Assembly (NCBI GenBank): GCA_035498395.1
Contig: DATKAF010000297.1
Coordinates: forward strand, 930-64,929
DNA length: 64,000 nucleotides
Direction: 5' to 3'
Source of the DNA: Anaerolineales bacterium
GTDB lineage: Bacteria; Chloroflexota; Anaerolineae; Anaerolineales; Villigracilaceae
Below are positions 20,967-37,325 of this stretch, in pieces. Within the stretch, counting starts at the first letter, position 1. Each line of letters opens with the position of its first letter. The translations under genes were made by a program, and so were the position numbers. The notes under the pieces were generated by a model. That model saw nothing but the letters and a program-made list of their open reading frames with translations. It made no database searches and had not been told where the DNA came from.

Positions 20967-21212
20967 TCAGGACTCCTGTTGCCCCAGAGAACCACTTTGC
21001 TGCACGGCGGTCAGCTCCGTCTTTTCGCGGATCCACTCGTCGATGTTTCGCTTGTTAAACCGCCAGGTCTTTCCAATCCGAAATGCGGGGAGGCCACCGG
21101 TTCTTGCCATCCTGTATATTTTTGCCTCACTGAGGCGCAGATATTTGGCCACGTTGTGGACGGTCATGATCGTCCCTGCCGGGTCACCCCAGTAGCTGCT
21201 GTCTACGTTCAT
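20967..21212 (-). CDS. Excisionase/MerR-type helix-turn-helix DNA-binding protein (81 aa)
   Basis: MTVHNVAKYLRLSEAKIYRMARTGGLPAFRIGKTWRFNKRNIDEWI is the classic excisionase-family HTH pattern. Start chosen at the ATG at 21210-21212, preceded by GGAGGA. Confidence 0.8.
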   Translation of the reverse strand: MNVDSSYWGDPAGTIMTVHNVAKYLRLSEAKIYRMARTGGLPAFRIGKTWRFNKRNIDEWIREKTELTAVQQSGSLGQQES

Positions 21213-21461
21213 CGGTTCCTCCGTGTCGGTGGTGGAGTTCTGTGGGGAGCGCATGATGAGTCCTCGTAGATCTAATGGAATAAGCGTTCGAATTACTGTT
21301 CTTCAGTCGCGGAGACTTGTCAAAGGCCTGGCTGGAGCTCTCCTCTTTCAGGCTGAGCGGCCCGCCTTCTTCTGCCGCCGGCACGCACGGCTTCGACCGC
21401 AACCGCTAAACCTGGCCCACCGAATAAGGCTTGTCTTGACAAATGAAGACTTTCACGAGCC

Positions 21462-21489
21462 TTGCACTTTTGTAATTTGCTTCTACAAT
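21462..21489 (+). promoter_or_regulatory. Sigma70-like promoter candidate (TTGCAC-N16-TACAAT) inside the AT-rich gap
   Basis: Hexamers read directly. No ORF of 60 aa or more lies downstream on the plus strand, so the target, if any, would be non-coding. Confidence 0.3.
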
Positions 21490-21512
21490 TCTATTAGACG
21501 TCGGTCACATAA

Positions 21513-21566
21513 CGGTCTCAATCCCGCTTTATCTTGTCGCAAATCCTGCTAAGTCGGTCTCAGTCC
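21513..21566. repeat. Direct repeat CGGTCTCA(A/G)TCC, two copies 42 nt apart
   Basis: Copies at 21513-21524 and 21555-21566 with one mismatch. A related GTCGGTC occurs at 21500-21506. Confidence 0.5.
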
Positions 21567-21950
21567 TAGCAAAATTGGATAGAATAAAACTAGTTTTGTG
21601 CTGGATAGTGACATTCAGTACTGCCAATATCAAAGTCGTCCTGAAAAATGCTAACAGTACCTAATATGAACGCTTTGAATGGTTCCAAGGAGTCACGGTT
21701 TGTGACCCATTTGGTCAACAACTACCAGATTTGGACATTTTCATGGCAATACCCCCATGCATGGTGGTAGCTAATCTTGATCCAAAGACTCAGTATTCGA
21801 AGATGCGCAAGAACCGGCTCAGTTGCGCAGATTTACCAATTCGCCACGGTTCGATCACAATATCCCCCCTTTGATTCGAGTTTCTGAAAGACAAGCAACA
21901 AGCACACGATCGGGGATACACAGACATCCACGAATCCCACGAATGACCTG

Positions 21951-22259
21951 CTAACCCCGAATTGTCCCTTGCCGGCAGGCGAACAGTTTTCGCAGCGAAA
22001 CGATGGCGACCGTGGTCATGCCGACGATCAACAGGTTTTCGAGAAGCCCGAACATTCCGCTGAGCAAGCCCGAGCCGCCGTCGAGGCTGTGCTCACCGCC
22101 AAGGCCTTCGTGGACGCGGCCCGCCACATCGATGGATGTTCCGAGCGACGCGGCGTTAGCCGGTTGGTTGAGGCAATAGATCAGCGCTCCAAGCGCGATG
22201 GCTGCCAGGGCAATCACGATATAGCGAAAGATGATCTTCTTCATGGTATGTATCCACAC
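21951..22259 (-). CDS. Small membrane protein, hypothetical
   Basis: N-terminal TM (IIFRYIVIALAAIALGALIY), a Gly-rich middle and a second TM (LLIVGMTTVAIVSL). It follows the upstream membrane-protein gene with a 2-nt gap. Start is either the GTG at 22259 or the ATG at 22244. Confidence 0.5.
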   Translation of the reverse strand: MWIHTMKKIIFRYIVIALAAIALGALIYCLNQPANAASLGTSIDVAGRVHEGLGGEHSLDGGSGLLSGMFGLLENLLIVGMTTVAIVSLRKLFACRQGTIRG

Positions 22260-22261
22260 AT

Positions 22262-22783
22262 CTAGAGGGCTTTGGCAGTCTTTCCAGGAACGGTACGGGA
22301 TTCACGCCCGGTTCGAATGGCAGACACGCGGCTTTGCAACGGCGTTATTACAATGCGGCGGAAGCTGTTCTTCACCCATGACCAGTGCAGCGCAAAATGC
22401 GTGGCAATCAGGAAAAGTGTGATGTTGGCCGACGTGCTGTGGATTTCACGCCACGTTCCGCCGGATAGCATCTGCACGCCGAGCGCCGGCATAACGACCC
22501 GGGAAATCACCAGGCCGCTGACGACGGTAATCGTGAACGCGACGAAGAGCAGAGCGTCCACGAGATAGTCCAGCCGCGATACGTGCATGAGATTTCGGAA
22601 GAAGCTCCGCGTGACACCGATAACCCAATCCCCGTGCAGGGCGACGTGCAGCACGAGCGTCGCTGCTGTTGCAAGAGCAAGCCATTCATGAATGGTCGAG
22701 CCGGTCAGGCGAGGTTGCAGCGCCGCCATGGCGCCTGCGAAGATGAACGCGTCGATCCAAAAACTTGTTTTCAATGATCTCAT
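22262..22783 (-). CDS. Multi-His integral membrane protein (four-helix, cytochrome-b-like; possibly DUF4405 family)
   Basis: Four TM helices with conserved-looking His residues (IHEWLA ... HVALHGDW ... REIHSTSAN ... ATHFALHW). GGAGA SD lies 6 nt upstream of the ATG. Confidence 0.6.
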   Translation of the reverse strand: MRSLKTSFWIDAFIFAGAMAALQPRLTGSTIHEWLALATAATLVLHVALHGDWVIGVTRSFFRNLMHVSRLDYLVDALLFVAFTITVVSGLVISRVVMPALGVQMLSGGTWREIHSTSANITLFLIATHFALHWSWVKNSFRRIVITPLQSRVSAIRTGRESRTVPGKTAKAL

Positions 22784-22918
22784 TGGTTTTCTCCGATCCG
22801 TCGGTTTGATAAGGCTATTCTAGAGGTGCATCGTGAACACTTCGTTACGCATTTGTGTAGTAAGTGTCTAGATCGCAGCCATTGGATGTCACGCCTCACC
22901 CGGGAGTCGCAGCCAGCC

Positions 22919-22962
22919 AAAAAAACAGCCCGTTGGACGACAGTGCATCATCCAGCGGGCTG
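22919..22962 (-). terminator. Rho-independent terminator (12-bp stem, U7 tail on the minus strand)
   Basis: CAGCCCGTTGGA / TCCAGCGGGCTG stem with one G-U pair and a 13-nt loop. Seven A on the plus strand (22919-22925) give UUUUUUU on the minus transcript. Confidence 0.7.
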
Positions 22963-22983
22963 GAAACGAGAGGGCGTTGCGGC

Positions 22984-23106
22984 TCAGGACCGGCTGGCGA
23001 CGCCCATATCGGTCAGCTCGTCAGGGTTCAGGCTCTCGACGAGTGCCCCTGTCGTGGAAAGGGCGAGTAAGAGCGGTATGCTGAGGAGTATCATTAATAC
23101 AGTCAT
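22984..23106 (-). CDS. Candidate small protein (40 aa) with a hydrophobic N-terminus
   Basis: MTVLMILLSIPLLLALSTTGALVESLNPDELTDMGVASRS. GGAGA lies 8 nt upstream of the ATG, and the terminator begins about 20 nt after the stop. Confidence 0.4.
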   Translation of the reverse strand: MTVLMILLSIPLLLALSTTGALVESLNPDELTDMGVASRS

Positions 23107-23270
23107 GTGGAAGTCTCCGTGCCGTGTTGCCCAAATTCTAGTTCGGCAGGATTTCAGCAGAATGAACGAGATGTGTAGGAACTGTGAGCTTCTGCGGTTC
23201 CAGTGCGGCTGTCTGCCCGTCTTATTCCCAGCTCCAGATTCGAGCACCCCATCTTAGATAGACCTGCCTC

Positions 23271-24323
23271 ATGACATTTCTCTGGCCTGGCTTCCTGTAC
23301 CTGCTGGCTTTGGTACCGGTCACCGTCGGTTTTTACGTGTGGATCCTCCACCGGCGCCGCCCATACGCGGTGCGGTACTCCAGCCTCAGCCTGGTGCGCA
23401 ATGCTCTGCCGCCTCACTCCGGCATCCGCAGGCACCTGCCGTTCGCACTTTTCACGGTTGCACTGGCCGGTCTGTTGATTGCGCTGGCGCGGCCCGTGAC
23501 CGTTGTAGCAGTGCCGACGGCTCAGGCGACGATCATACTGGCCATCGACGTCTCGCGTAGCATGTGCTCGACGGATATTGCGCCGACGCGCTTACAAGCG
23601 GCCGAGTCCGCTGCTACGACCTTTATCCGCCACCAGAGCGCGCATACCCAGATCGGCATCGTGGCCTTCGCGGGCTTTGCCGAACTGATCCAGCCTCCTA
23701 CGACCGACGCGGACGCCCTGCAGGCCGCCATCGAGAGCCTGCTGACCGGGCGGCGGACGGGCATTGGCAACGCCATCTTGAAATCGCTGGATTCGATCGC
23801 CGAGGTGGACAAGGCTGTCGCTCCGAGTGTGGTCGACCCGTCGGATGAGCCGCCGCCCGTTGCGAAAGGGGCCTACGCTCCCGACATCATCGTGGTCCTG
23901 ACCGACGGCGCGAGCAACACGGGAACTTCGCCACTCGACGCCGCACAGCAGGCCGCCGATCGGGGCGTCCGGGTCTACACCATTGGCTTTGGCACACCAA
24001 ACGGCAGCGAGACCGCCAGTTGCCAGACCAGCGACCCTTCCGGTATCGGCGGGTTCGGCGGCTTCGGCGGCGGGTTTGGCGGAGGAGGTCTCTTTCGAAG
24101 GGGGATCGATGAGCTGACGCTAAAGAATGTAGCCAGCCTGACGGGCGGCGCATACTACCCCGCTTCGAGCGCCGCAGAGCTGCAGCATGTTTTCCAGAAC
24201 CTGCCGACTTACCTGATCATCAAGCACGAGACGTCGGAAGTGAGCGCATTCTTTACCGCTGCGGCTGCGATACTGGCGGTTGCTGCGATTGCGCTGTCAC
24301 TTTTGTGGCATCCGCTGCTCTGA
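23271..24323 (+). CDS. VWA-domain membrane protein (BatA-like)
   Basis: N-terminal TMs, MIDAS motif ILAIDVSRSM, VVLTDGASNTG and a C-terminal TM anchor. Contains a GIGGFGGFGGGFGGGG insert. Confidence 0.85.
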   Translation: MTFLWPGFLYLLALVPVTVGFYVWILHRRRPYAVRYSSLSLVRNALPPHSGIRRHLPFALFTVALAGLLIALARPVTVVAVPTAQATIILAIDVSRSMCSTDIAPTRLQAAESAATTFIRHQSAHTQIGIVAFAGFAELIQPPTTDADALQAAIESLLTGRRTGIGNAILKSLDSIAEVDKAVAPSVVDPSDEPPPVAKGAYAPDIIVVLTDGASNTGTSPLDAAQQAADRGVRVYTIGFGTPNGSETASCQTSDPSGIGGFGGFGGGFGGGGLFRRGIDELTLKNVASLTGGAYYPASSAAELQHVFQNLPTYLIIKHETSEVSAFFTAAAAILAVAAIALSLLWHPLL

Positions 24324-24329
24324 CCCGGC

Positions 24330-27203
24330 CTATTTGTCCTTCTTCAATTGATTCTTGCGCTTCAATAGTGCTTGCGTGAGCGCTGGCTGCGATTCCGGCG
24401 TTGCAGGCGGGATCCTGCCGGGTTCTCGCGGAGCTGTGATACGCTCGGCAGTGAGCGTATCCGGCGGCAGCGGCTGCGGGCTGCTCCCCGCTGCTGGCTT
24501 CTTCCCCTGCCAGGCATCGATGCGCTGCACCCTCTCTTTTGAGCGCATGAGCGCGCTCATGCGCTCGTCTGGTAAGGCCGGAGCCTCGCCTTGCTGCGCC
24601 GGGCCGGCGATGCGTGAAACGAGCCTGTCGCGCCATCGCAGGAGGTCCGTGCGTGAGAGGGCAAGTCGCCGGCTCGCCACGTCCAGTGGCAGCAACAGGG
24701 CTGCCAGCACGATCAACCATGGTGCGACCGGGCGCGTGGCTCGCGACCCGAGAAGGGTGTGCTCGAATGACGCCGAGGGGTTGGGTGGAGCGACCTTTCC
24801 GCCGGTGATGGTCGCCAGGCGCACCAGCAGGTCGGGGTTGGGCGGTGTGTCGCCGTACTCGGGGGAATAGCTCATCGTCCATCCCTGCGTTTCGGAGAAC
24901 GACGCGCCGCCTTCATCCACGCCGGTAAACCGCATGATGTAATTGCCCTGCTGGGCAGGCTCGAACACGCCCTCATACCGGCCCGGAGCGACCTGTTGCA
25001 GTGTGATGGTCTGCGCATCGCCCGCTGGAGAGACGATGTTGGCCTTCACCTGATAACCATTGAGGAAATCCCCCACCCGCGTCAGCGCGTCCAGGGTAAT
25101 GGTCGAGGAAGCCTCGTCGTTCTTCACGCTCATGTTGAGTGCCGCGTTCTGCGTGCCACCCATCGTTGACTGCACCACCTGCGCCCAGAACGCAGGGAAG
25201 TTCTTCCAGTTCACCCAATCCCGTGCCCAGTGACCGGTGGCATCCGACGTGAACGCGACCGACCGCCCAAGACCATACTGCCAGGTTGCCAGGATGGGGT
25301 CTTTCTGATCCGATTGCAGGATCACCTGTGCCAGCGGCTTCGGGCTCGAGGCGACATATCCATACAGCTCGGGCACGCTACCGATGCCTGACAAAACCGG
25401 TGAGGGGCTTGCCAGCTTCGGATGGAAGGGCTCCTCAACGAGGTACGCTCGCATAGCCATGGTCGTCTCTTCGGTGAAGATGGACGGGATGCTCCCTGCA
25501 TCGCTGGTGAAGTGATAGCGCCCGCCCCCGATGCTTGCCAGATCCTTCAGGAAGGGCGCGGCGTCGTTGCCGATGCCTACCGTCGAGAGCGTGATGCCCT
25601 GCTCATGCAGTTGTTGCACCAGTTCCGGGATACCCGTGGGGTCTGCGCCTCCGTCGGTCAGCAGGATGACATGCTTGACCTTGGCCGGGTCGCCTGGAAG
25701 CACCCGTGCCATGGCATGCACGCCGCCCAGGATGTCCGTGCCGCCTCCGACCTGGATGCTCCCGATGGCGCGTGTGACGGCGAGGGCATCCGATAGCGGA
25801 GTCATGGGGACCACCCAGCTTGCCACGTCGTCGAAAGCGATCACGCCCACGCGGTCCGTCGGGAAGAGCATACGGACGGAACGCGCCGCGGCTTCCTTGG
25901 CAAGCTCGAGCTTGACCGCGCTGCCGCTGGTCTCGCCCATGGAGCCGGAGTGATCGATGATGAAGACAATGCCGAGCGAAGGCCTGCGCTTCTCATCCTT
26001 GATCTGCATGTCGACTGGCAATGCGGATTCCAGCGGGGTGTCGTAGTAGCCGCCCACGCCGTAGCTCGCCGGTCCTCCCACGACAACCAGCCCGCCTCCG
26101 ACATCCCGCACGTAGCTTTGCAGCGCCTCCATCTGGTTCACGCCCAACTCCGTTGCAGGGACATCCACCAGCACGATGGAATCATAGCGCGCCAGACCGG
26201 GCAGGTCCGAGGGCAGCAGTTGCGGAGGTACACGGTCCACGCGGAAGCCTGCCGCTTTCAACGCCGCCATGAGCGCGGAGTATTCTTCGGGCCGCGACTC
26301 GCTGCCTTGCGATGCGACCATCAGGATGCCGGGCGGCCCTTCGACGCGTGAGAATGCATCCAGTGTGTTGTTCTGATAGTACAGGTCCTGCCCGGGCGTG
26401 ATCTGTACGCGGTAATCAATGAAGCCCGGGTCGCCGGCCGTGAGCGGCAGGCTGAAGGTCTGCGTACCGCGTCGCAGTTCGCGTGGCTGGTCGTAGACGA
26501 CCTGGTCACCGGCGATGACCCGGATGTTGGCCTGCATCGGCGCGCTGGCTTGCACGTTCATGTTCAGATCGAACTTCTCTCCCGGTCGCAAGTGCGTAGG
26601 CGCGTCCACGCCGGTTACCATGGCGTCGGCGCCAGGCTGCGAGACGAACGGGACGGAGAAGATCTGCACACCCGAGGCCGCTGCGATCTGCGCTGCCGAC
26701 TGCGCGTTGCCGCCGGTCTCGGCGCCGTCGGAGAGGATCACCATGCGGCGCGCCGGCCCGGATGGATACAGCGCCATGCCGAGCTGGATCGCCTTCGCGA
26801 GGTCCGTCTGGGTCGTGATGGGTACGGACGTGACCGTGGAAAGCTCCCGGCCTGCCAGCATCGGGCGCTCGACGAGCGCATCGGCGCCGAACAGGATCAC
26901 CGCGGCCTGGTCGTTCGGTCCCATGCCCGCCAGCGCCTCGCGGACATATCCGATCTCGCCCGAGACAGCCTGTTGCGGCATCGAGTCGGAGACATCCACG
27001 AGGAAGACGAGGGCGAGGTCATTGCCGCCCCGAACGAGCTGCAAGCCGGCGAGCGCCAGGATCAGGCACGCCGCGATCACCAGCCGCAGCACCAGCGAGA
27101 CGAATTCGCGCCTGTGCCAGCGACCGGCCGAGGGCCAGCCCATCCACGCCAGGAGCGGGAGCAGCAACAGGAGTAGCAGGAAGAACGGCGACCCAAACCT
27201 CAT
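24330..27203 (-). CDS. Large membrane-anchored protein with two VWA domains and a GATase1-like (ThuA/DUF4159-like) domain
   Basis: MIDAS motifs VFLVDVSDSM and VFIIDHSGSM. Between them lies GILMVASQG...GGGLVVVGGPASYG. There is a C-terminal TM and an Ala/Pro-rich tail. Start at the ATG at 27201-27203, in ATGA overlap with the upstream stop. Confidence 0.85.
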   Translation of the reverse strand: MRFGSPFFLLLLLLLPLLAWMGWPSAGRWHRREFVSLVLRLVIAACLILALAGLQLVRGGNDLALVFLVDVSDSMPQQAVSGEIGYVREALAGMGPNDQAAVILFGADALVERPMLAGRELSTVTSVPITTQTDLAKAIQLGMALYPSGPARRMVILSDGAETGGNAQSAAQIAAASGVQIFSVPFVSQPGADAMVTGVDAPTHLRPGEKFDLNMNVQASAPMQANIRVIAGDQVVYDQPRELRRGTQTFSLPLTAGDPGFIDYRVQITPGQDLYYQNNTLDAFSRVEGPPGILMVASQGSESRPEEYSALMAALKAAGFRVDRVPPQLLPSDLPGLARYDSIVLVDVPATELGVNQMEALQSYVRDVGGGLVVVGGPASYGVGGYYDTPLESALPVDMQIKDEKRRPSLGIVFIIDHSGSMGETSGSAVKLELAKEAAARSVRMLFPTDRVGVIAFDDVASWVVPMTPLSDALAVTRAIGSIQVGGGTDILGGVHAMARVLPGDPAKVKHVILLTDGGADPTGIPELVQQLHEQGITLSTVGIGNDAAPFLKDLASIGGGRYHFTSDAGSIPSIFTEETTMAMRAYLVEEPFHPKLASPSPVLSGIGSVPELYGYVASSPKPLAQVILQSDQKDPILATWQYGLGRSVAFTSDATGHWARDWVNWKNFPAFWAQVVQSTMGGTQNAALNMSVKNDEASSTITLDALTRVGDFLNGYQVKANIVSPAGDAQTITLQQVAPGRYEGVFEPAQQGNYIMRFTGVDEGGASFSETQGWTMSYSPEYGDTPPNPDLLVRLATITGGKVAPPNPSASFEHTLLGSRATRPVAPWLIVLAALLLPLDVASRRLALSRTDLLRWRDRLVSRIAGPAQQGEAPALPDERMSALMRSKERVQRIDAWQGKKPAAGSSPQPLPPDTLTAERITAPREPGRIPPATPESQPALTQALLKRKNQLKKDK

Positions 27204-29101
27204 GTCGGCGAGGGGCTTCCCTTCCGGCGGAGGGACGGCAGGCGTAACGGCTTGCGATGGGATGCCTGCCATTCGACCAGCAGCAGGACGAGACCCACCG
27301 CGGCGGGCCACTGCCACAGTTCGCGCTCACCCACCTGTCTCGAGGCGGTCGGGTTGATGATCGTGCGGCCCACCTGGATGCCGGGCCGCGGGCGGATATC
27401 CGACTCCGACGGGTCGAACAGGTTGACCGCGAAGTAATCGGCCGTGGTGCTGCCGTCATTGGCGATAAAGTTCACGGCGTAGTATCCAAGCTCAGCGGTG
27501 CCGTCATAGACCAGCTTGCCGACGCCGGGCGTGTAAGAGACCGCCTGTCCGGACGGCGAGACGATGGCTATCTGCTTGATGCCCGAGGGCGGAACGATGG
27601 AGAGGCTCCCGCCCGGGCGAAGCGATTGCGTCGCGTCGAACGGGGTGGGCGGGACAAGATAGTTGATCAAGTTCGAGAAGAGGATCGGGTACGCGACCTG
27701 AAGAGGCAGGTCGCTCTGCCGCAGATCAAACGTCACAGCCGCGATGCGCCGCCCAAGCGTCTCACCGGCGAACACCAATGGGCCGCCGTCTGCCTGCACC
27801 AGCACATCCGCCCAATCCGGCGGCTTCACGCTCTCGGCTTGCATCACGTGGATGTTTCCCCAGTCCACGTAGCGTGTCAGGTCGGACGGGTTGACTTTCA
27901 CGCTGCTCATCTGCTGGAAAGGTTCGCCAACCACAAACAGCGGATTGGCCGGCGGGTCGATCATCAGCAGGTTGCCCCTGGTCAGCCCGTCTTCGTAGAC
28001 GCCGTCCAGCACGTATAGATCGAATGGCTCCGCCGGTATTTGAACGCTGCCAGCCTGGTTCGCGAGCGCCTTGAACGGCTTGATGCCCGGCAGGGAGGCC
28101 AATAGCTGCTCGAGGAAGAGGTTGCCCTTTGATATCAGCAGCACCCTCCGTGCCGACGATGCCTGGTACACCGCGAACGCCGTGTCGTCGAGGGACAGGG
28201 CGTCCAATGCGCCGCCATGTGGATCACTGATGCGCGCCTTGTACACGCCCGAGGCACCGGGGAGTTGGTCCAATGTGAGCCCCTTGTGCTCTCGAGGCGC
28301 CAGTTTGAGCTGGTAGGCCGTCAGAAGCTGCTCGCCGAGATAGAAGGACAGCAGGACCGTCCGATCCGCCTGGCTGTAATTCGTCACCTCCGCGAACAGC
28401 TCCGGGGCCCCGGCGGTAGGACGAAGGGCCAGCGCGGTGATGGCGATGTTGTTATCCAGGTTGCCAACCGGCACGTAGCGGACATCACCCGGCAGTGCAG
28501 GCAAGCCGGAATCGGGCAGGCCTCCATCGGAGACGATGACCGTCACGCTCCCCTGGCTGCCGTGCGCAGCCCCCGCGGCGAGGGCGAATGCCGCCTGCCA
28601 ATCTGCGCTGCCCTGAGTCGAAGTCGCTCCTGCCAGCGCAGCCCGCAGTGCGTTCTTGTCGGACTCTGAGGCAGCCAGCACCTTCGGCGTTGTGCCCACC
28701 AGGATCAGCGTCATCGATGAGCCCGATGGCATCCCATCGATCAGCGATGCGACTGCCTGGCGCGCCTCATCGAAGCGGGATCTGTTCCCGTCCACCGCAT
28801 TCATGGAGGCCGAGGCATCGAGCAGTCCGATGACCGAGCCCGATGCGACGACAGGCGTTCGGATCGCCGGTCGGGCTGCGGCCAGCACCAGCGCTGCTAG
28901 TATCAACAGTTGCAGGAGCAGGAGCAGATTCCGTCTCAACTTTTGCCACGGGGCATTGGCCTCGCGGTCCAGCAGCAACTGGGTCCACAACAGCGTCGAG
29001 GAGACGCGGACCGGCTTGCGGCGCATCTTCAGCATGTACAACACGATGATGGGCAAGGCCGCAGCCAGCAGCCAGAGGGCGGATGGACTCAAGAAGGTCA
29101 T
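27200..29101 (-). CDS. BatA-N-terminal-type membrane protein with a VWA domain
   Basis: MTFLSPSALWLLAALPIIVLYMLKMRRKPVRVSSTLLW is the aerotolerance-operon BatA N-terminal pattern. MIDAS motif VIGLLDASASM. ATGA overlap with the DUF58 gene stop. Confidence 0.8.
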   Translation of the reverse strand: MTFLSPSALWLLAAALPIIVLYMLKMRRKPVRVSSTLLWTQLLLDREANAPWQKLRRNLLLLLQLLILAALVLAAARPAIRTPVVASGSVIGLLDASASMNAVDGNRSRFDEARQAVASLIDGMPSGSSMTLILVGTTPKVLAASESDKNALRAALAGATSTQGSADWQAAFALAAGAAHGSQGSVTVIVSDGGLPDSGLPALPGDVRYVPVGNLDNNIAITALALRPTAGAPELFAEVTNYSQADRTVLLSFYLGEQLLTAYQLKLAPREHKGLTLDQLPGASGVYKARISDPHGGALDALSLDDTAFAVYQASSARRVLLISKGNLFLEQLLASLPGIKPFKALANQAGSVQIPAEPFDLYVLDGVYEDGLTRGNLLMIDPPANPLFVVGEPFQQMSSVKVNPSDLTRYVDWGNIHVMQAESVKPPDWADVLVQADGGPLVFAGETLGRRIAAVTFDLRQSDLPLQVAYPILFSNLINYLVPPTPFDATQSLRPGGSLSIVPPSGIKQIAIVSPSGQAVSYTPGVGKLVYDGTAELGYYAVNFIANDGSTTADYFAVNLFDPSESDIRPRPGIQVGRTIINPTASRQVGERELWQWPAAVGLVLLLVEWQASHRKPLRLPSLRRKGSPSPT

Positions 29102-29979
29102 TTCAAGATCCCGCTGCGCCGCAGCTCCAGCAGCACCAACTGGTCCCAAGGCCGCGCGGTGCTGAATTGGACGTATCCGACGCCGTGCTTTCTACATTCA
29201 CCCCGGGTGTCCCGAATCCAGGAGCGCACGCGGTCCTGGTAGAGCGTCCGCAATCTGCCATCTAGCGAGACAACCTGCTGCGCGCCGGTTTCCACATCGA
29301 CCAACTGCAGGTCTCCGCTCAATGGCGGGTCAAGCTCATCGGGCGAGAGCAAGTGCAGGATCGCCGCTTCGCTTCCGCGCGCCAGCAACGGCCGCAGCCC
29401 GAGCTCCGGCTGGTCCGCGGAGAGGAGGTCGGAAATGAGGATGACCAGCCCGGGGCGCCGCGGCGTCACCGCGAACTGATGAAGGGACTCATTCAGTTGT
29501 GTACTACCGCCCGGCTGGAGTCCCTCCAGCACATCGAACATCCGCGAGAGCGAGGCCTCGCCTCGCATCGGACCGAAGCCTGCCCTTATTCCGCCGCTTT
29601 GCAGCAAGGCGAAGGATAACGCGTCACCGGATGCCAGAGCGATGGCTCCCAGCCCGGCGCAAAGCCGGAGGGCATACAGGAACTTGTGTTGCTCGCCCTC
29701 GCCCCAATCCATAGAGCGCGAGCCGTCGAGCAGGATATAAACGGCGAGGTCCTCTTCCTCTTCGAACATCTTGATAAAGGGCCGCTCCAGCCGCGCATAG
29801 ATGTTCCAGTCGAGGCGCCGCAGATCGTCGCCGGGCGTGTAATCGCGGTAGTCGGCGAACTCTACGCTGCTGCCGCGCCGGGACGAGCGCCGGTCGCCCT
29901 TGATTGCCCCCGTACGGACGCGCGAGGCAACCAGCGTGAGCTGCTTCAGCTTGCGGAGGGTGGTCTCATCGAAGAGCAT
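29098..29979 (-). CDS. DUF58-family protein (MoxR-associated, VWA-like)
   Basis: RRGSSVEFADYRDYTPGDDLRRLDWN and ILLDGSRSM are the canonical DUF58 motifs. Confidence 0.85.
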   Translation of the reverse strand: MLFDETTLRKLKQLTLVASRVRTGAIKGDRRSSRRGSSVEFADYRDYTPGDDLRRLDWNIYARLERPFIKMFEEEEDLAVYILLDGSRSMDWGEGEQHKFLYALRLCAGLGAIALASGDALSFALLQSGGIRAGFGPMRGEASLSRMFDVLEGLQPGGSTQLNESLHQFAVTPRRPGLVILISDLLSADQPELGLRPLLARGSEAAILHLLSPDELDPPLSGDLQLVDVETGAQQVVSLDGRLRTLYQDRVRSWIRDTRGECRKHGVGYVQFSTARPWDQLVLLELRRSGILK

Positions 29980-29995
29980 GGGAAAATTGGGAGTA

Positions 29996-30095
29996 CACGG
30001 ATGTCACGGATTGCACAGACTCACACGGATACGGATATAGCTTGGGATTTAATGAAATGCTCCCGTGAAAATCCGTTTCGTCCGCGTAATCCGTG
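29996..30095. repeat. Cluster of CACGGAT / ATCCGTG heptamers in the MoxR-DUF58 intergenic spacer
   Basis: CACGGAT at 29996, 30005 and 30024. ACGGAT at 30031. Inverted ATCCGT at 30071 and ATCCGTG at 30089. Confidence 0.6.
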
Positions 30096-30105
30096 TTCCA
30101 TGTAC

Positions 30106-31089
30106 CTACGCGTTCCCCTGCGGAACATGCTCAACGAGTTCCGCGATCACGTCGTCGGGGCGGATCCCCTCTGCGAGGCCGTCGAAGTTGAGAATGAGGC
30201 GGTGGCGGAGGGCTGCGGGCGCGACGGCATGGACGTCATCAAAGGCGACGTTGTAGCGCCCCTCCAGCAGCGCGGTCACTTTCGCGCCCAGCATAAGCGC
30301 CTGACCGCCGCGCGGCGATACGCCATAGCGTACGTACTTCTTCACCAGCGGCGTCGCCTCCTCCTGTTCCGGGTGCGTCGCCAGCACAAGCTCCGCGATG
30401 TACTCGCGCACATGGGATGCGACGGGTACGCCGCGCGCCAGGTCGCGCATCTGCATGATCTCCGCGCCGGAGATTACACAGCCCGCAGACGGCACGCTCT
30501 TGCCGGTGGTGCGGTCGAGGATCTCGACCATGTCGGCGACCTGCGGCATATCGACGTTGACCTTAAAGAAGAAGCGGTCGACCTGCGCCTCAGGGAGAGG
30601 ATACGTGCCCTCCATCTCGAGGGGGTTCTGGGTGGCGAGCACGAAGAACGGCTCGTCCAGCCGATAGGTCTTCTGCGCGACCGTCACGGAGCCCTCCTGC
30701 ATGGCCTCCAGCAGCGCAGACTGCGTCTTAGGCGTGGCGCGGTTGATCTCGTCGGCGAGGACCAAATTGGCGAAGATGGGGCCCGACCGGAAGCGGAACT
30801 CGCGGCGCCCGCCCTCGTCGCTCAAGATCTCGGTGCCGAGGATGTCGGCGGGCATTAGGTCGGGAGTGAACTGGATGCGCGAGAACTTGAGGTCGAGCGC
30901 CTGGCCCAGGGTGCGGATCAGCATGGTCTTGCCGAGGCCGGGCACGCCTTCCAGGAGCACATGCCCGCCAGCGAGGATGCTGACCAGAACATGGCGCACC
31001 ACGTCCACCTGCCCGACGATGACCTTGCCGACCTCTTCTTCCACTCGGGCGGCACCGAGGCGGAATTGCTCGACGGTGAGTTCGCTCAT
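30106..31089 (-). CDS. moxR: MoxR-family AAA+ ATPase
   Basis: Walker A GVPGLGKT, Walker B LVLADEINRATPKTQSALLEAMQE, and typical MoxR length. Start set at the ATG at 31087-31089, 5 nt after GAGG. Confidence 0.95.
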   Translation of the reverse strand: MSELTVEQFRLGAARVEEEVGKVIVGQVDVVRHVLVSILAGGHVLLEGVPGLGKTMLIRTLGQALDLKFSRIQFTPDLMPADILGTEILSDEGGRREFRFRSGPIFANLVLADEINRATPKTQSALLEAMQEGSVTVAQKTYRLDEPFFVLATQNPLEMEGTYPLPEAQVDRFFFKVNVDMPQVADMVEILDRTTGKSVPSAGCVISGAEIMQMRDLARGVPVASHVREYIAELVLATHPEQEEATPLVKKYVRYGVSPRGGQALMLGAKVTALLEGRYNVAFDDVHAVAPAALRHRLILNFDGLAEGIRPDDVIAELVEHVPQGNA

Positions 31090-31096
31090 AAGCACC

Positions 31097-32728
31097 TCAG
31101 GGTTTGAGTGAGTCGAAGTAGCTGCGGACGACCTGCATGAACTCGAACGGCACGGCGCCGTTATCGATGGCCTGCTGGTTCACCTGTTCATACTGGCCGA
31201 GCACCTGCTGGTAGGGAACCATGCTCTGGTTGTTCTCTCCGGGTGTAATGGGGCCCTGCCCGATGGTCGTCCCGTCCTGACCTGAATCGGGGAGTTGAAC
31301 ATTCGAGCCGCCGCTGCCGCCCAGCAGGCTGGGCGCGTAGATCTGCTCATACGTGGCTTCCGCGCCGCTGCCCGGACCATTGTTCTGATCGATGGGAGAA
31401 TCCGGCGCTTCCTGGCCGCCGGCCTGGCCCTGCCCGGCTCCATGCCCGCTGCCCGAGTTGCTTTGTCCCTCCTGGGAGCCGCCCGGCTGACTCCCGCCGG
31501 GTTGCGCGCCGGCCTGCCCCTGACCCTGCCCGGGGATCTGGCCTGCGCCAGGCTGGTCTGCCTGCTGACCGCCACCCGCGGCCAGCACCTGCCCGGCCCC
31601 CTGCTGCATTACCTGCCCCGCCTGGCCTGCCACCTGGGAGAACGCCAACTGCTGCCCTGCTTGTGCCAGCGACTGAGCCGCGCTTTGCAAGGCCTGCTGC
31701 GCGGCGGCCGTGTCCCCGCTCTGAAGCGCATGAGCGGCCTGCTGTAACTGCGAGGCCAGAGCCGGGTTGCTGGAACCGAGCGCCTGCGCCAAGGACTGGA
31801 GCTGGCCCGCCAACTGCTGCGCCTGTGCGGGGCTGAGCTTGCCGGGATCGATCTGCGCGAGCTGCGCGGCCGCACCGACCGCGTTGCCCTGCTCCAATGC
31901 CTGACCCACCGATTGCAACGGGCTGCCCGCCTGGCTGCTCAACTGGCCACCCGCCTGTTGCAGCGCCTGGCCCATCTGCTGCGCCTGCGGGTCGGAAAGC
32001 GACTGGAGCTTCTCGCCGGTACTGGTCAGCACGGAGACGGAACTTTCCTGCGAGGGATTCTTTTGGAGATCTTGCAGAGCCTGCTCCAGAGGCTGCGAGA
32101 GCGCCTGCTTCTGCGCCTCGGTCAGTGTATTGTTCTTGTCGATCTGGCTCAGGATCTTCTCGATGTTCTCCTGCTGTTGCGTGACGGCCTGCTTCACCGA
32201 AGCGGCGCGGCGAGCAGCCTGGAACAAGGACTCGCCGCGCACCCAGAGCAGTGCGATCAACAGCAGGCAGAGCAGGGCGGGAGCGGCTTCCACCGGGCGC
32301 AGCCGCAGAGGCAGGTCGTGGGCAGGCCTCACGTCGCGCGCGAGGCGGCGGGTGTCCTCCAACTGCTGCCGGAGCAGCGGGTTGGCGGCACGCTCGGCCT
32401 CGCTGATCTCGAGGGCGGTGCTGAGGCGTTCCTGCAAGCCCAGCACGCGGTCGAGCCGACGGACCGCGTGCAAACGGGGCAGCGGCCACAGATAGGCGAC
32501 CAGAGCCGAGAGGAGGGGCAGCAGCAATGCAAGCGCCGCCACCAACGCAAGGAACTGCGGCCTCACGAGCCGCGCCTGCAACAAGCCGGCTCCGCCAAGC
32601 AGCAGCGCCAATAGCAAGCCAAGGTCCAGTCCGAGCAGGCACCAGCGCAGGGCACGCTGCAGGCGCATACGCCGGAGGCAGCCAGCGATGATCGCGGATA
32701 AGGCGTCGAGATCGGAGGCGGCGTCCAT
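31097..32728 (-). CDS. Membrane protein with a long Gln/Ala/Gly-rich low-complexity region (possibly DUF4175-like)
   Basis: Three N-terminal TM segments, then about 300 aa of Q/A/G/L/S repeats (AQQLAGQLQSLAQALG ... GQGQGQAGAQPGGSQPGGSQ). The ordered C-terminus is YFDSLKP. TGATG overlap with the upstream permease gene. Confidence 0.6.
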   Translation of the reverse strand: MDAASDLDALSAIIAGCLRRMRLQRALRWCLLGLDLGLLLALLLGGAGLLQARLVRPQFLALVAALALLLPLLSALVAYLWPLPRLHAVRRLDRVLGLQERLSTALEISEAERAANPLLRQQLEDTRRLARDVRPAHDLPLRLRPVEAAPALLCLLLIALLWVRGESLFQAARRAASVKQAVTQQQENIEKILSQIDKNNTLTEAQKQALSQPLEQALQDLQKNPSQESSVSVLTSTGEKLQSLSDPQAQQMGQALQQAGGQLSSQAGSPLQSVGQALEQGNAVGAAAQLAQIDPGKLSPAQAQQLAGQLQSLAQALGSSNPALASQLQQAAHALQSGDTAAAQQALQSAAQSLAQAGQQLAFSQVAGQAGQVMQQGAGQVLAAGGGQQADQPGAGQIPGQGQGQAGAQPGGSQPGGSQEGQSNSGSGHGAGQGQAGGQEAPDSPIDQNNGPGSGAEATYEQIYAPSLLGGSGGSNVQLPDSGQDGTTIGQGPITPGENNQSMVPYQQVLGQYEQVNQQAIDNGAVPFEFMQVVRSYFDSLKP

Positions 32729-33684
32729 CAGCGGTCTCGCCTGCGCACGAGGCGGATGCTGACGGCGATCATCAACAACGCCAGGCCAACATAGATGACA
32801 ATGAACGGTATCCACGGAGACGGAAGCCACACGGTATGACCGCCGAACAAGGATTGGTTGGTGTAGAACAGGTTCTGACTATCCACGAGGATCACCTCGC
32901 TCATCACGGCTGCGAGCATGGGGTTGGTGCATACCAGCACCCACAGCATCACGTTCAGCAGCGTGGCGATCCAGAGCTGGCTGCCGGAGCCGGGCGTCCA
33001 CACCGGGCTGATGGCCGCCAGTATGAAGAAGGCCAACCCCAGCAGGATATTGGACAGGATGATAGCGGCATAGGAGGCGACGGTTGCCGCCAGCGTGCGC
33101 CTCAGCAGGCTCGAGAGCAACATGCCGAGCGTGCAGAAGAACACGGCCGTGACGACCATCAGCACGGTCGAGATGACGATCTCTTCCAAACCCACGCCGC
33201 CCAGCAGGAATGCGATGCTCTCAATCGGAAGGGCGGCGAAGACCAGCAGGAGGAGATAGATCATGGACGAGCCGAGCTTGCCCAATACCAGAGACCGGGC
33301 GGGCAGCGTAGTGGTGCGAAGCAGGTCGAAGGTCTGATGCTCGCGCTCGGAGGTAATGGCGCCGGAGGTCAGCGCCGGCGCGATGAAGCAGATCAGGAAG
33401 AGCTCCAGCAGCACGACCGTTCCGAAGATGGCTTTGCCCGAGGTCTGCCGTATCTGCAGGCTCCCGCCCGTGTAGGACTGGGTGGTTGCCAGCCCCGCAT
33501 AGACGACGCCTGTCACGACTGCCAGCATCAGCAGGTAGAGCGTGAGCAGAAGGAAGGCCTGCCGGCCGCGCATACGCCCGCGCAGTTCCTTGCGTATAAC
33601 AGGGTTCTCCAGCGCCCGGCGGATCAGATCAGGGTGCTTGCTGCGGGCTGGGGATGGGACAGGGGCGGTGGCTTCGTTTTCCAT
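32728..33684 (-). CDS. ABC-2-type transporter permease
   Basis: Six TM helices and an N-terminal IRKELRGRMRGRQAFLLL motif typical of ABC-2 permeases. It lies directly downstream of the ABC ATPase. Confidence 0.7.
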   Translation of the reverse strand: MENEATAPVPSPARSKHPDLIRRALENPVIRKELRGRMRGRQAFLLLTLYLLMLAVVTGVVYAGLATTQSYTGGSLQIRQTSGKAIFGTVVLLELFLICFIAPALTSGAITSEREHQTFDLLRTTTLPARSLVLGKLGSSMIYLLLLVFAALPIESIAFLLGGVGLEEIVISTVLMVVTAVFFCTLGMLLSSLLRRTLAATVASYAAIILSNILLGLAFFILAAISPVWTPGSGSQLWIATLLNVMLWVLVCTNPMLAAVMSEVILVDSQNLFYTNQSLFGGHTVWLPSPWIPFIVIYVGLALLMIAVSIRLVRRRDR

Positions 33685-33705
33685 GAGAGCTATTCTCTCC
33701 GCAGC

Positions 33706-34668
33706 TTACGAAACGATCCCGCGCGTGGTGCGCATGAAGACCTCTTCCAAATCCTGCGTTTGTTCGCTGAAATGGACGACAGGCAGACCGCGATCGAGCG
33801 CCTGCCTGAGCAGGGATTGCAGGGCATCGTCATCGCCGTCGAATTCCGCTTTGAACGCCAGCCAATCGGTGCGGACAAAGCCCTCTTGAGGCCGCACGTT
33901 CGAGAGACCCGGCAAAGATGCAAGGGCAGCCTGGGCCTCGGCCGCATCCGGATGGTTCAGAAGCGCGAACTGCACGAGCCGGTGCGGCACGGCCTCCCGG
34001 CTGAGCTCATCCAACGAGCCCACGGCAACCAGCCTGCCGCTCTCCATAATGGCGACACGCGAGCACAACTCGGCAACATCGGCCAGGATGTGGCTGGAAA
34101 ACAGGATGGTCTTGCCGAGCCGCGCGATCTCCAGCAACAGCTCACGGATCTCGACGCGGGCACGCGGGTCCAGCCCGGAGGCGGGCTCGTCGAGAACGAG
34201 CACGCCCGGGTCGTGCATGAGCACGCGGGCCAGGCCAAGCCGCTGTTTGAGGCCGCGTGACAGGGTATCCACCATGTCGTCGCGGCGGTGACCGATGTCC
34301 ACCAATTCGAGCAGGTCCTTGATGAGGCTGACACGCTGTGCCGGCGGGATGCCGTAGCAGGCGCCGAAGAAGTCCAGGTATTCGCTGACGGTCATCTGGT
34401 CATACACGCCGAACGCGTCGGGCATGTAGCCGATGAGGGCGCGCACCCGGCTCGGATCATGGCTGACGGAATGGCCGCCCACGAGAATCTCCCCGCTATC
34501 GGGCTCGAGCAGCGTGACAAGCATGCGCATGGTGGTGGTCTTGCCGGCGCCGTTCGGCCCGACGAGTCCGAAGATCTCGCCGGCCTCAATCGCCATGCTG
34601 ACGTGATCGACTGCAACCCGCCCGCCGAAGTGCTTGTTCAGGTCACGGATCTCGACAATGGCGCTCAC
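33706..34668 (-). CDS. ABC transporter ATP-binding protein
   Basis: Walker A GPNGAGKTT, signature LSRGLKQRL and Walker B LVLDEPASGLD. GTG start in GTGA overlap with the upstream stop. Confidence 0.95.
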   Translation of the reverse strand: MSAIVEIRDLNKHFGGRVAVDHVSMAIEAGEIFGLVGPNGAGKTTTMRMLVTLLEPDSGEILVGGHSVSHDPSRVRALIGYMPDAFGVYDQMTVSEYLDFFGACYGIPPAQRVSLIKDLLELVDIGHRRDDMVDTLSRGLKQRLGLARVLMHDPGVLVLDEPASGLDPRARVEIRELLLEIARLGKTILFSSHILADVAELCSRVAIMESGRLVAVGSLDELSREAVPHRLVQFALLNHPDAAEAQAALASLPGLSNVRPQEGFVRTDWLAFKAEFDGDDDALQSLLRQALDRGLPVVHFSEQTQDLEEVFMRTTRGIVS

Positions 34669-37013
34669 CGGTCCACCTCTAGCGAAACCGTCGATCGGCT
34701 GACGCTGAGATACGAGTTTGCCAAAGGTTCGATGCGCAATCTCACTTCGCCGCCGGGCCCGACGTAGCGGGACGGGGCCGGGATGTCATTCAGGCCGCCC
34801 CACGTCAGGTTGTCCACCTTGAACCACTGCCCGTCCTCATAATCCCAGAGCCAGGCAGCCACCTGATTGGAGACTTGTGATGGTAAAGCGCCCGCATTGA
34901 CATCCAGATCCAGATCCAGCCGCGCCACGGACTTGTACGTGATGGGGATGGCCGGATGGAAGCGCAGCACATAACTGCCGCCTGAACCCTGCCCATAGTA
35001 ATTGGGGGAAAAGGGCCCAGACCCATCGGCGGAGGCCTCCCACGCCATGAGGCCCGGCGTGATGCCCACAGCGCCGGACTTGTACTGCACGGATGGGTCC
35101 AGCAGGTCCACGTACAGAGCGGTATCGATGGCCCCAAATTGGCGGCCCTGCACGCGAACAGGCAGCATTTGGTTATCGAGCCAGCCCATCAGGAAGATGC
35201 CCCAATTGCCACGATACCGCTGGCTCAACAGCGCCTGGAGCATGGCGAGCTTGCGAGCCATGTCCTGGTCGGAGACGCCATTGTACGGGAAGTAATTGAG
35301 AATGTTCATTGGTTCTTGCGCGTAGAACTGCGGGCCGCTGCTGGATGAGGCGAGGGATACATTGACCCTGATATAACCGCTCGGCGGCAGATCACCCAGG
35401 CTTTTCCAATCGCCCGCCGTCACCAGCATCGCGCCGCGCAACGTGTAGGGGCTGGCGTTGGTGATCCGGCCACGCAGAATGGCGGTTGTCTTGTCTACAG
35501 TGAGCACAAGATCATGCCGGATGGGCAGCGCCTGCAGGCTGCCATCCACGGCGACGGCCTTCATGCCGCCGATCTCCACAGGCAGGTCGGACACGGCGGT
35601 CGTCCCCCCGCTTTGGATCGATGCAGAGGCGGCGTTATCGAACGGATATAAGATGAAGGGATCGTCCGCTTCGAGGGAGTACTTTGCCCGGCCGGGAGAG
35701 TAGACGCCAACCAGCCCATGCACCTGCGCCTGGTCGGAGCCATCCCAGGCCTGGACCACGGCGATGCGGTTGAGGATCGGGCGGCTGCCGCGAAAGACAT
35801 TCCCATACAGGTATGCGAGCAGGCTGAAGAGTACGACGAGGGCGGGGATGGTGATCCAGGCCAGCTCGCCCTTCTTCCTGCGCCTCAGGATGATGAAATT
35901 CAGGGGGCCAATGATGGCGATATAGAGGCCCATCCAGCCGCAGACGTAGAGCGTGGAAGGCAGCCCAAGCTCACGCAGGGCGGAGAGGGCCTGGTTGGCG
36001 GAGGACGGGTCCCACGGCGTTTTCATCCACTCAGGCCGCGCCGGTTTCGTCCCGAGGAGACCGGAATATAGTTCCTTCATCCCGTCCCAGCGGCTCAACG
36101 GCTGGAGTGAGGGATCGGCGGAGATGTAGAGCACCTCCCCGAAGCCGAGCAGCTTGCGGACGACGAGCGGCAAACCGTCCGCCTCGACGAGGGTAGTTGC
36201 GCCGATCCGCGGCGTCGCCACGGACACGATGGCGGGCCCATCCGGCGCATTGGACTGCCGGAAATAATCCTGGAGAGCCGAAAGGTTGGCGACCGTGTGT
36301 GTGGATCGGATGTCCACCGGCAGGAGATCGCGCAAGCCGGCCGCCGCGGCCTGCCATTGCGGCCCGCCGATGACGACGAGCTTGCCACCACTGGCGACCC
36401 AGCTCTTCATGGCGGCGCGCTGCGCGTCGGTCAGCACAGCGGTGTCCACGCCCGAGATGACGAGCCCATCCAGGGTTTCCCAGCCCTGGGCCTGCGGGGG
36501 CAGGTCATTCAAGTGAACCTGGGCTGTAAACACATGGCCCTGAGAGAGATCGATCTGCTTGAGGAGGTCGTATGAACCGGGCTGGTCTGCCGCGACGCCG
36601 ATGATCATGTCGTTCGATAGCACGCATTGGCGCGTCACCTTGCTCCCGGCGACGGCCTTCCCGTTCATCAGCAGAGAGACGGTCAGCGTGTAACTGCTCT
36701 GAGGCGGGTAAGCGTAGAGCGTCAATTCCTTCCGGGAGGTGGTCGGGAGCTGGAGCTCGCCGCTCTGGATCCGGTCGTTAATGCCGTAGCGTGTCTCATA
36801 GGCGAGCTGTACCCGCCCGGCAAGGTCCGGCCCATCGTTGGCGAGGGTGACGCGGACAGGCATCCAAGCGCCTTCCTTGCAATAGCCGTCAAAGCCAGCC
36901 TCGACCGCCATCGTCACGCCGCCTCCGCTTTGCGCGCGGGCGGGGGCTGCCAGAAAAGCTGCGAGAGCCACGGCGACCACGATCAGGAGCGTGCCTTGCC
37001 TGTACTGCTTCAA
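34665..37013 (-). CDS. Large secreted/membrane protein of unknown function (GATase1-like platform domain, two internal TM segments)
   Basis: Signal peptide (LLIVVAVALAAFLAAPARA). LVISGVDTAVLTDAQRAAMKSWVASGGKLVVIGGPQW resembles GldG/DUF4350-type domains. Central TMs (LYVCGWMGLYIAIIGPLNFII and ITIPALVVLFSLLAYLY). TTG start 7 nt after GGGAGA. Confidence 0.6.
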   Translation of the reverse strand: MKQYRQGTLLIVVAVALAAFLAAPARAQSGGGVTMAVEAGFDGYCKEGAWMPVRVTLANDGPDLAGRVQLAYETRYGINDRIQSGELQLPTTSRKELTLYAYPPQSSYTLTVSLLMNGKAVAGSKVTRQCVLSNDMIIGVAADQPGSYDLLKQIDLSQGHVFTAQVHLNDLPPQAQGWETLDGLVISGVDTAVLTDAQRAAMKSWVASGGKLVVIGGPQWQAAAAGLRDLLPVDIRSTHTVANLSALQDYFRQSNAPDGPAIVSVATPRIGATTLVEADGLPLVVRKLLGFGEVLYISADPSLQPLSRWDGMKELYSGLLGTKPARPEWMKTPWDPSSANQALSALRELGLPSTLYVCGWMGLYIAIIGPLNFIILRRRKKGELAWITIPALVVLFSLLAYLYGNVFRGSRPILNRIAVVQAWDGSDQAQVHGLVGVYSPGRAKYSLEADDPFILYPFDNAASASIQSGGTTAVSDLPVEIGGMKAVAVDGSLQALPIRHDLVLTVDKTTAILRGRITNASPYTLRGAMLVTAGDWKSLGDLPPSGYIRVNVSLASSSSGPQFYAQEPMNILNYFPYNGVSDQDMARKLAMLQALLSQRYRGNWGIFLMGWLDNQMLPVRVQGRQFGAIDTALYVDLLDPSVQYKSGAVGITPGLMAWEASADGSGPFSPNYYGQGSGGSYVLRFHPAIPITYKSVARLDLDLDVNAGALPSQVSNQVAAWLWDYEDGQWFKVDNLTWGGLNDIPAPSRYVGPGGEVRLRIEPLANSYLSVSRSTVSLEVDR

Positions 37014-37280: not shown

Positions 37281-37325
37281 CAAAATGCAGACTTCCGAAG
37301 TCTTGTGGACTTCGGAAGTCTGCAT
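37281..37325 (-). terminator. Rho-independent terminator (perfect 18-bp stem, 5-nt loop, U4 tail) ending the catabolic operon
   Basis: ATGCAGACTTCCGAAGTC-TTGTG-GACTTCGGAAGTCTGCAT. The minus transcript continues with UUUU. It lies 20 nt downstream of the SDR stop. Confidence 0.8.

Follow-up and report, generated by a model that had tools for sequence, protein, structure and literature searches.

Few bacterial gene sets of unknown function are as widespread as the MoxR-DUF58-VWA ("Bat") modules. In the Bat operon of Bacteroides, which has homologs in spirochaetes and Francisella, a MoxR-proper (MRP) AAA+ ATPase and a DUF58 protein are encoded with proteins carrying a BatA_N double transmembrane (TM) segment and an extracytoplasmic von Willebrand factor A (VWA) domain with a metal ion-dependent adhesion site (MIDAS). 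Bat proteins are believed to form a complex in the membrane, and a Leptospira mutant from which every bat gene is missing showed no oxidative-stress phenotype (PMC3557215). As assembly chaperones, MoxR-vWA couples use the MIDAS site to bind an extended peptide (PMC7159879). In archaea, the products of arCOG01314 (DUF4350), MoxR and vWA genes have been predicted to form a secretion or membrane-remodeling complex, and their GldG-like platform has been likened to a trimerization domain (Makarova, Galperin, Koonin 2015, PMC5898192). Here we describe a cassette of eight genes (g1-g8) in which a module of this kind is encoded together with an ABC-2 transporter, a large platform protein and a family-less membrane protein. 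It lies in a 64,000-nucleotide stretch of an Anaerolineales genome (Chloroflexota; contig DATKAF010000297.1, positions 930 to 64,929), referred to below as the window; its homologs and the sequencing runs that match it point to an Anaerolineales genome of a wetland metagenome.

The cassette comprises eight tightly packed minus-strand genes at positions 24330-37013, as defined from the open reading frame (ORF) table and translations (Table 1). Judged from its sequence, it belongs to the MoxR-DUF58-VWA class of modules, the corresponding components being g5, g6, g7, and g8. An ABC-2 transporter of the PF12679 branch is provided by g2 and g3 (an ABC_tran ATPase beside a PF12679 permease), while g1 has the extracytoplasmic GATase1-like platform in a membrane-anchored protein that characterizes the DUF7408/DUF4350 platform class. 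A preliminary description, made by reading this DNA, had reported eight chained genes joined by overlaps or short gaps, assigned their domains, and counted five MIDAS-type DxSxS motifs in four proteins. The ORF coordinates reproduce the chain, Pfam and NCBIfam scans agree with the domains, and the five motifs, counted as those of beta1 type, are located at g6 D85, g7 D95, g8 D70 and D417, and g9 D93, g9 being the convergent neighbor of the cassette.

Conservation of gene order was surveyed by a g1-anchored search that took one genome per species and yielded 80 Anaerolineae loci, with neighbors identified by tblastn using the nine window proteins. When only loci with at least 1.5 kb left after the previous gene are counted at each step, the next gene is present in 75/75 (g1 to g2), 69/70 (g2 to g3), 57/63 (g3 to g4), 46/48 (g4 to g5), 39/43 (g5 to g6), 35/37 (g6 to g7), and 26/29 (g7 to g8) cases. 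Complete g1-g8 chains occur at 26 of these loci, with g1 identity down to 29%, and five more were recovered in a g8-anchored scan of metagenome contigs. Median intergenic distances among the relatives are 1, 20, 6, 64, 73, and 7 nt. (For pattern scanning, alignment A1 was too diverse and the narrower A2 was used instead.) No widely conserved neighbor was found in the upstream 6 kb (48 loci) or the downstream 5 kb (15 loci); since the flanks differ everywhere, g1-g8 can be regarded as one self-contained unit.

The same arrangement is found outside Chloroflexota. Bacillales cassettes, traced via a 25%-identical g1 relative in Bhargavaea, contain all eight genes in the same order and with unrelated flanks in Bhargavaea, Sporosarcina psychrophila, and Lysinibacillus yapensis. 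The g1-like protein has approximately 800 residues, the Pfam-less protein at position 4 approximately 470, the BatA_N-VWA protein approximately 586, and the double-VWA/GATase1_like protein approximately 860. The survey of the eight-gene order proposed in the preliminary description thus finds it conserved in two phyla, and with order and tight spacing both kept in Anaerolineae and Bacillales, the ABC-2 genes, g1, and g4 belong with the MoxR-DUF58-VWA part. The lack of synteny between the two parts that would have spoken against their association is therefore not observed, and we hold with high confidence that g1-g8 constitute a single functional unit.

Table 1. Coordinates of the cassette genes, their junctions and associated features (window numbering; junctions are with the next gene of the cassette)
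Feature	Position	Strand	Description	Junction
g1	34665-37013	-	782 aa, TTG start	GTGA overlap
g1 platform	36099-36617	-	aa 133-305; non-catalytic, GATase1-like/GIFT-type (AF2 model, Foldseek, hhalign)	
g1 TM hairpin	35790-35954	-	aa 354-408; cytoplasmic loop LRRRKKGELAWITIP	
g2	33706-34668	-	ABC ATPase	21-nt gap
g3	32728-33684	-	ABC-2 permease	TGATG
g4	31097-32728	-	543 aa, counted from an internal ATG	1-nt gap
g5	30106-31095	-	MoxR-proper AAA+ ATPase	126-nt gap
g5-g6 spacer hairpin	29990-30107	-	long, imperfect; folding energy (dG) -51.5 kcal/mol, z -5.75	
g6	29098-29979	-	DUF58	ATGA
g7	27200-29101	-	633 aa	ATGA
g8	24330-27203	-	957 aa	
g8 tail	24333-24665	-	aa 847-957; predicted cytoplasmic	
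g9	23271-24323	+	convergent neighbor, BatA-type VWA gene	
Terminator-like hairpin	37287-37323	-	near-perfect 16-18 bp stem, then UUUU; right after the SDR gene, 270 nt before g1	

The limits of the unit are visible in the window. On its 5' side stand an SDR gene and further redox genes, and the 332-nt gap between the SDR gene and g1 holds a terminator-like hairpin (dG -35.2 kcal/mol, z -6.3; none of 200 shuffled sequences folds as well) that marks the 5' boundary of g1-g8. A simple terminator scan missed this element because its T-run consists of only four T. Within the cluster, promoter-like and terminator-like sites show no excess over shuffled sequence. The downstream end abuts g9, the stop codons of g8 and g9 being separated by 6 bp.

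Compared with the Bat operon, the cassette encodes VWA proteins that are two to three times larger, with GATase1-like platforms and Ig-like domains, and adds the conserved ABC-2 transporter, the 782-residue g1, and the family-less g4. No Pfam or NCBIfam match to BatC (TPR), BatD (oxygen-tolerance domain), or BatE was found in g1-g9 or the flanking ORFs. The BatA and BatB equivalogs (NF047508 and NF047506) are not reached, with best scores of 72 bits (g9, cut-off 380) and 16-31 bits (cut-off 350). The actinobacterial MoxR1-DUF58-VWA triads (Rv1479-Rv1481 type; PRK13685 VWA) have the same order of MoxR, DUF58, and membrane-VWA genes; unlike the cassette, they stop at three genes, their VWA proteins are small, and they encode neither a transporter nor platform proteins.

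The archaeal arCOG01314 system resembles the cassette in that a membrane-anchored extracellular GldG-like/flavodoxin-like platform protein is encoded with MoxR and vWA, in its Ig-like extracellular partners, and in that its components are mostly predicted to be membrane-bound or extracellular. However, it is archaeal, has S-layer-like partners, and lacks an ABC transporter, BatA_N-type double-VWA proteins, and a g4-type protein. Its defining single C-terminal TM anchor, pfam07760 partners, and archaeal context are not found here: the g1 hairpin lies mid-protein, the Pfam scan gave no pfam07760 match, and the carriers are bacteria. GldA, GldF, and GldG of Bacteroidota are similar to g1-g3 in combining an ABC ATPase, a PF12679-type permease, and a large extracytoplasmic GATase1-like (GIFT) accessory protein. 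They are not coupled to MoxR, DUF58, or VWA genes, and g1 differs from GldG by its mid-protein TM hairpin and domain order. Scores against the Gld equivalogs fall short (GldA, 235 vs 403; GldF, 23.5 vs 288.5), and g1 has no GldG or ABC_transp_aux match. A precedent for a force-transmitting ABC-2 module is NosDFY, in which a PF12679-type permease and ATPase are coupled to a large extracytoplasmic partner; as g1 is unrelated in sequence to NosD and nos genes are absent, this is an analogy only. The preliminary description considered the architecture possibly uncharacterized, and neither a literature account of the ABC-coupled form nor a database name for it was found. The idea of an archaeal DUF4350, MoxR, and vWA complex has already been published, so the concept is a variant rather than wholly new.

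Translation of g1 from its TTG codon is preceded by a good ribosome-binding site, AGGGAGAG. Pfam assigns DUF7408 to the protein (34.6 bits, cut-off 27), with a sub-threshold match to DUF4350 (18 vs 30.4). Structure prediction, recommended for this protein in the preliminary description, gave a confident AlphaFold2 (AF2) model with a predicted local distance difference test score (pLDDT) of 92 and a predicted TM-score (pTM) of 0.90. A signal peptide (aa 1-27) is followed by a β-sandwich (aa 33-130), the platform, the TM hairpin, and C-terminal β-sandwiches (aa 413-782). Foldseek searches highlight STM1381 (PDB entry 3soz) and STM3548 (2gk3) as the best matches, limited to the platform; the rest of g1 resembles Ig-like or MG-like sandwiches. 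All matches are thus at the level of single domains, and no whole-chain analog was identified by Foldseek. The TM hairpin and its loop form the most conserved stretch of the g1 family (130 homologs), which suggests a conserved contact within or beneath the membrane. According to profile searches, this family has at least 5,643 cluster representatives (50% identity, E <= 1e-30); its full-length members with E < 1e-160 number more than 150. Named homologs include proteins of Rummeliibacillus, Rossellomorea, and Bacillus species, and the database names of all g1 relatives are "hypothetical" or DUF7408. In two Chloroflexota genomes, two tandem g1 paralogs precede the ABC genes (locus L018, 7367-9580 and 10103-12301; locus L026, 2222-4435 and 4925-7183). 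At another locus (L081, 10001-17017), a distant g1 homolog (25% identity) is followed by the ABC ATPase only and then by xanthine-dehydrogenase-type genes, without the permease or the MoxR part.

The ABC ATPase g2 is DrrA/GldA-like, matching ABC_tran (103 bits) with a DrrA-type C-terminus, and all of its catalytic motifs are intact. Its partner g3 has approximately six TM helices, matches ABC2_membrane_2 (PF12679; 42.4 bits, cut-off 27.2), and is weakly GldF-like. ABC-2 modules of PF12679 type can work as mechanical transducers instead of exporters. In place of the single permease gene of the window, seven related cassettes contain two tandem g3 paralogs with approximately 40-49% identity to g3 of the window (L020, L033, L052, L062, L071, L074, and L099), suggesting a heterodimeric rather than homodimeric permease in those cases.

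g4 begins with two TM helices, which a conserved loop rich in R (FDRxFxLxERVSTALEL) separates from a third. Beyond these lie a helical stretch rich in Q and A, a low-complexity stretch of G, S, and Q, and finally approximately 100 conserved residues that end in YFDSLxP. Neither g4 nor its 19 orthologs match any Pfam or NCBIfam model, even at E <= 1. An assignment to DUF4175/TIGR02302, low-complexity membrane proteins of proteobacterial MoxR operons, was considered and rejected on the same grounds. The position-4 protein of the Bacillales cassettes is a homolog (hhalign 99.3%, E 2e-20) with the same layout of two TM helices, conserved loop, third TM helix, coiled coil, G/Q/S low-complexity region, and a C-terminus ending in YFSS[IL].

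With AAA_3 (214 bits) and AAA_lid_2 (63 bits) matches, and with Walker A and B motifs, sensors 1 and 2, and the arginine finger all present, g5 is a MoxR-proper AAA+ ATPase; bpMoxR scores only 37 bits (Pfam). Its closest solved structure is PDB entry 2R44 (E 5e-78). The DUF58 protein g6 is vWA-like, with the MIDAS sequence DGSRS, and has no TM helix or signal peptide; it is therefore predicted to be cytoplasmic, alongside MoxR. For neither g3 nor g6 did a PDB sequence search find a relative of solved structure.

In g7, a BatA_N double TM segment and a VWA domain (VWA_2) are followed by a region of approximately 400 residues, and the protein ends in a TM helix with a short basic tail. TIGR02226 is matched just above its cut-off (23.7 vs 23.05; NCBIfam), and the VWA domain is nearest to the solved Bacteroides BatA/BatB domains (PDB entries 4jdu and 3ibs). 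g8 starts with a double TM segment and VWA1, continues with a GATase1_like platform into which VWA2 is inserted, and ends with an Ig-like domain, a TM helix (approximately aa 826-846), and a basic tail of approximately 110 residues; the MIDAS aspartates of VWA1 and VWA2 are D70 and D417, respectively. The two proteins are paralogous, aa 1-378 of g7 aligning with aa 1-353 of g8 (96%). With VWA2 excised, the g8 platform aligns with that of g1 (hhalign 93%, E 2.5e-7). Three platforms had been proposed in the preliminary description; those of g1 (from its fold) and g8 (from Pfam and the hhalign comparison with g1) stand, and that of g7 is suggestive only. The approximately 400-residue region of g7 could include such a domain, as suggested by hhalign (36%, E 4e-4) and by DUF7408 signals that are weak and confined to 3 of 35 orthologs. 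The single-sequence structure model of g7 has a pLDDT of 37, and a PDB search with the g7 profile matched the VWA domain alone.

When g8 of the window was compared with 22 relatives (L083, L085, and L087-L106), the tail proved variable except for RMxALxxAKxR, which is kept in Bacillales too, and a basic C-terminal LLxRKKxxRKK in Anaerolineae. RMxALxxAKxR is a candidate docking peptide for DUF58/MoxR. In Sporosarcina psychrophila (L084, 19291-21888) the g8 ortholog is split into genes of 596 and 258 residues at the point where the C-terminal half of the platform begins, which may be real or a frameshift.

In g7, g8, and g9, hydropathy and charge (positive-inside rule) predict that the VWA and platform parts are outside the membrane, in agreement with experiments on the BatA-like protein BB0173, whose VWA domain is periplasmic (PMC5700661). 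The likely arrangement has g1, g7, g8, and the long helical/disordered part of g4 outside, and MoxR (g5), DUF58 (g6), and the ABC ATPase (g2) inside, so that most of the protein mass is predicted to be extracytoplasmic.

We give roughly even weight to the proposal that g1-g8 form one conserved operon for an envelope machine that sits in the membrane and has two ATPase motors in the cytoplasm. The product of the cassette is most likely a large protein complex on the outer side of the cell membrane. How such a machine would work can be outlined with moderate to low confidence. MoxR, as a hexamer, and DUF58, its vWA partner in the cytoplasm, would form the usual MoxR-vWA chaperone couple. This couple may target loops or tails that g4, g7, and g8 expose to the cytoplasm, such as the conserved motif of the g8 tail and the R-rich loop of g4, and would thereby drive or gate the joining of g7 and g8 into a MIDAS/platform scaffold outside the membrane. 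g2 and g3 would cooperate with g1 via its conserved TM hairpin, either exporting a substrate to the scaffold or passing ATP-driven movement to the outer domains of g1, as in NosDFY. The shared platform domains may mediate association of g1 and g8, and perhaps g7, with g4 serving as a spacer or long tether. Such a machine might serve to assemble the cell surface, to secrete, or to remodel the envelope. A more far-reaching version, which we put forward only tentatively, is that of an unrecognized two-motor (ABC and AAA+) machine of single-membrane bacteria. In this version, MoxR-DUF58 and the ABC-2 transporter would jointly build or drive the scaffold, making the whole an apparatus dedicated to surface assembly or secretion and a bacterial counterpart of the predicted archaeal DUF4350-MoxR system.

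Several observations weigh against the envelope-machine proposal. In a minority of genomes the cassette is broken up after g3 (L024, L030, L048, and L072), g5 (L013, L019, L035, and L037), or g6 (L040 and L041), with unrelated housekeeping genes coming next, which indicates that the modules can be encoded apart. The cassette contains no substrate or cargo gene, and on its sequence the ABC module may be an exporter or a transducer. Topology was predicted by a crude hydropathy scan, and the g7 platform is putative, the signals for it being the weak hhalign and Pfam matches. No RNA run contains the locus, the matching runs being wetland/peat DNA metagenomes only.

The splits after g3 or g5 are also what would be expected if two independent systems were neighbors, namely an ABC-2 exporter with an accessory protein (g1-g3) and a Bat-like module (g4/g5-g8). 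The distant g1 homolog accompanied by the ABC ATPase only, and a classical MoxR-DUF58-VWA set without the ABC part (L108), point the same way. We nevertheless consider this improbable, given that the order is retained across two phyla between differing flanks, that start and stop codons overlap or lie 1 nt apart across g3/g4/g5, and that g1 and g8 have a platform domain in common. A related proposal, in which the cassette serves stress tolerance ("aerotolerance") as a classical Bat system and an unrelated ABC exporter was merely recruited into the operon, is distinctly unlikely. The affinity of the g7 VWA domain to Bacteroides BatA/BatB and the BatA_N domains of g7 and g9 fit it, but BatC, BatD, and BatE were not found, the carriers include both many strict anaerobes (Anaerolineae) and aerobes (Planococcaceae), and g1-g4 are as conserved in position as g5-g8. 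The absence of an oxidative-stress phenotype in the Leptospira all-bat mutant (PMC3557215) also stands against a role of this kind.

The cassette might instead mature an extracytoplasmic metalloprotein, delivering metal or cofactor to an enzyme encoded elsewhere. CoxD/CoxE, NorQ/NorD, and CbbQ/CbbO are MoxR-vWA couples that insert or repair metal centers, and in the NosDFY system the PF12679-type NosFY drives periplasmic NosD, copper being loaded into N2O reductase. MoxR together with MIDAS-bearing vWA proteins, the membership of g3 in PF12679, and the general role of MoxR-vWA couples in complex assembly are all consistent with such a function. It seems unlikely, however, as neither the cassette nor its surroundings contain a conserved metalloenzyme, metallochaperone, or metal-binding motif, and four large adhesive/platform proteins exceed the usual needs of these systems. 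It is highly improbable that the cassette is a ternary MoxR-vWA system of the kind active against phages or in conflicts. Such systems are enriched in multicellular bacteria, Chloroflexota among them (PMC7159879), and g5 has its weak bpMoxR match; this is outweighed by the AAA_3 score of the same protein (214 vs 37 bits). PADLOC reported no system, matching a generic P-loop only, and no β-propeller, FtsH, protease, effector, or hypervariable component is present. The cassette is moreover stably inherited with conserved order and does not reside in variable islands.

Beside the cassette, g9 encodes a BatA_N segment, a VWA domain, and a C-terminal TM helix (PRK13685, 196 bits vs cut-off 432). 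The preliminary description had listed this ninth, convergent gene with the other eight. No counterpart was found beside the cassette in Bacillales (downstream of g8) or at 14 metagenome loci, and g9 is adjacent in this genome only, not a conserved member. Upstream of g9, an ORF of 143 codons at 22826-23257 (+) was treated as non-coding, its translation being implausibly Cys/Arg/Ser-rich and without a family match. As it is probably no gene, g9 appears to be monocistronic and divergent from a DUF4405 gene at 22262-22783 (-). G+C content dips to 0.546 at 20001-22000, where long ORFs are few, compared with approximately 0.62-0.65 elsewhere; this stretch adjoins the gene for a 554-residue protein (19115-20779, -) with a GINT1_N domain and a weak, sub-threshold GH43-like match. 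The whole window contains no Rfam match, tRNA, or meaningful tandem repeats.

The hairpin in the g5-g6 spacer contains, within approximately 100 nt, 6 of the 39 ATCCGT/ACGGAT hexamers of the window, in which the element is unique. Five junctions were examined in related cassettes. Stable hairpins occur in about half of the spacers of at least 50 nt at g2-g3, g4-g5, g5-g6, and g6-g7, and in only 2 of 10 g1-g2 spacers. With similarly stable hairpins at three other junctions, a junction-specific regulatory role of the g5-g6 element was rejected. Spacer hairpins look like a recurrent trait of these Anaerolineae operons, being either inserted palindromes or mRNA-stability/attenuation hairpins.

In the variant described here, the MoxR-DUF58-VWA module has an ABC-2 transporter, a platform protein resembling GldG, and a member of a new membrane protein family as its physical and evolutionary partners. 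Tying the Bat-type module to these partners narrows its possible roles to the outer side of the membrane, and should the more far-reaching, two-motor version of the proposal prove true, it would provide the first concrete cellular role for such a module. The finding is a comparative-genomics lead and holds no surprise of principle. Since the full cassette occurs in the cultivable and genetically approachable genera Sporosarcina, Lysinibacillus, and Bhargavaea, its function is directly testable, and with it the role of Bat-type modules.

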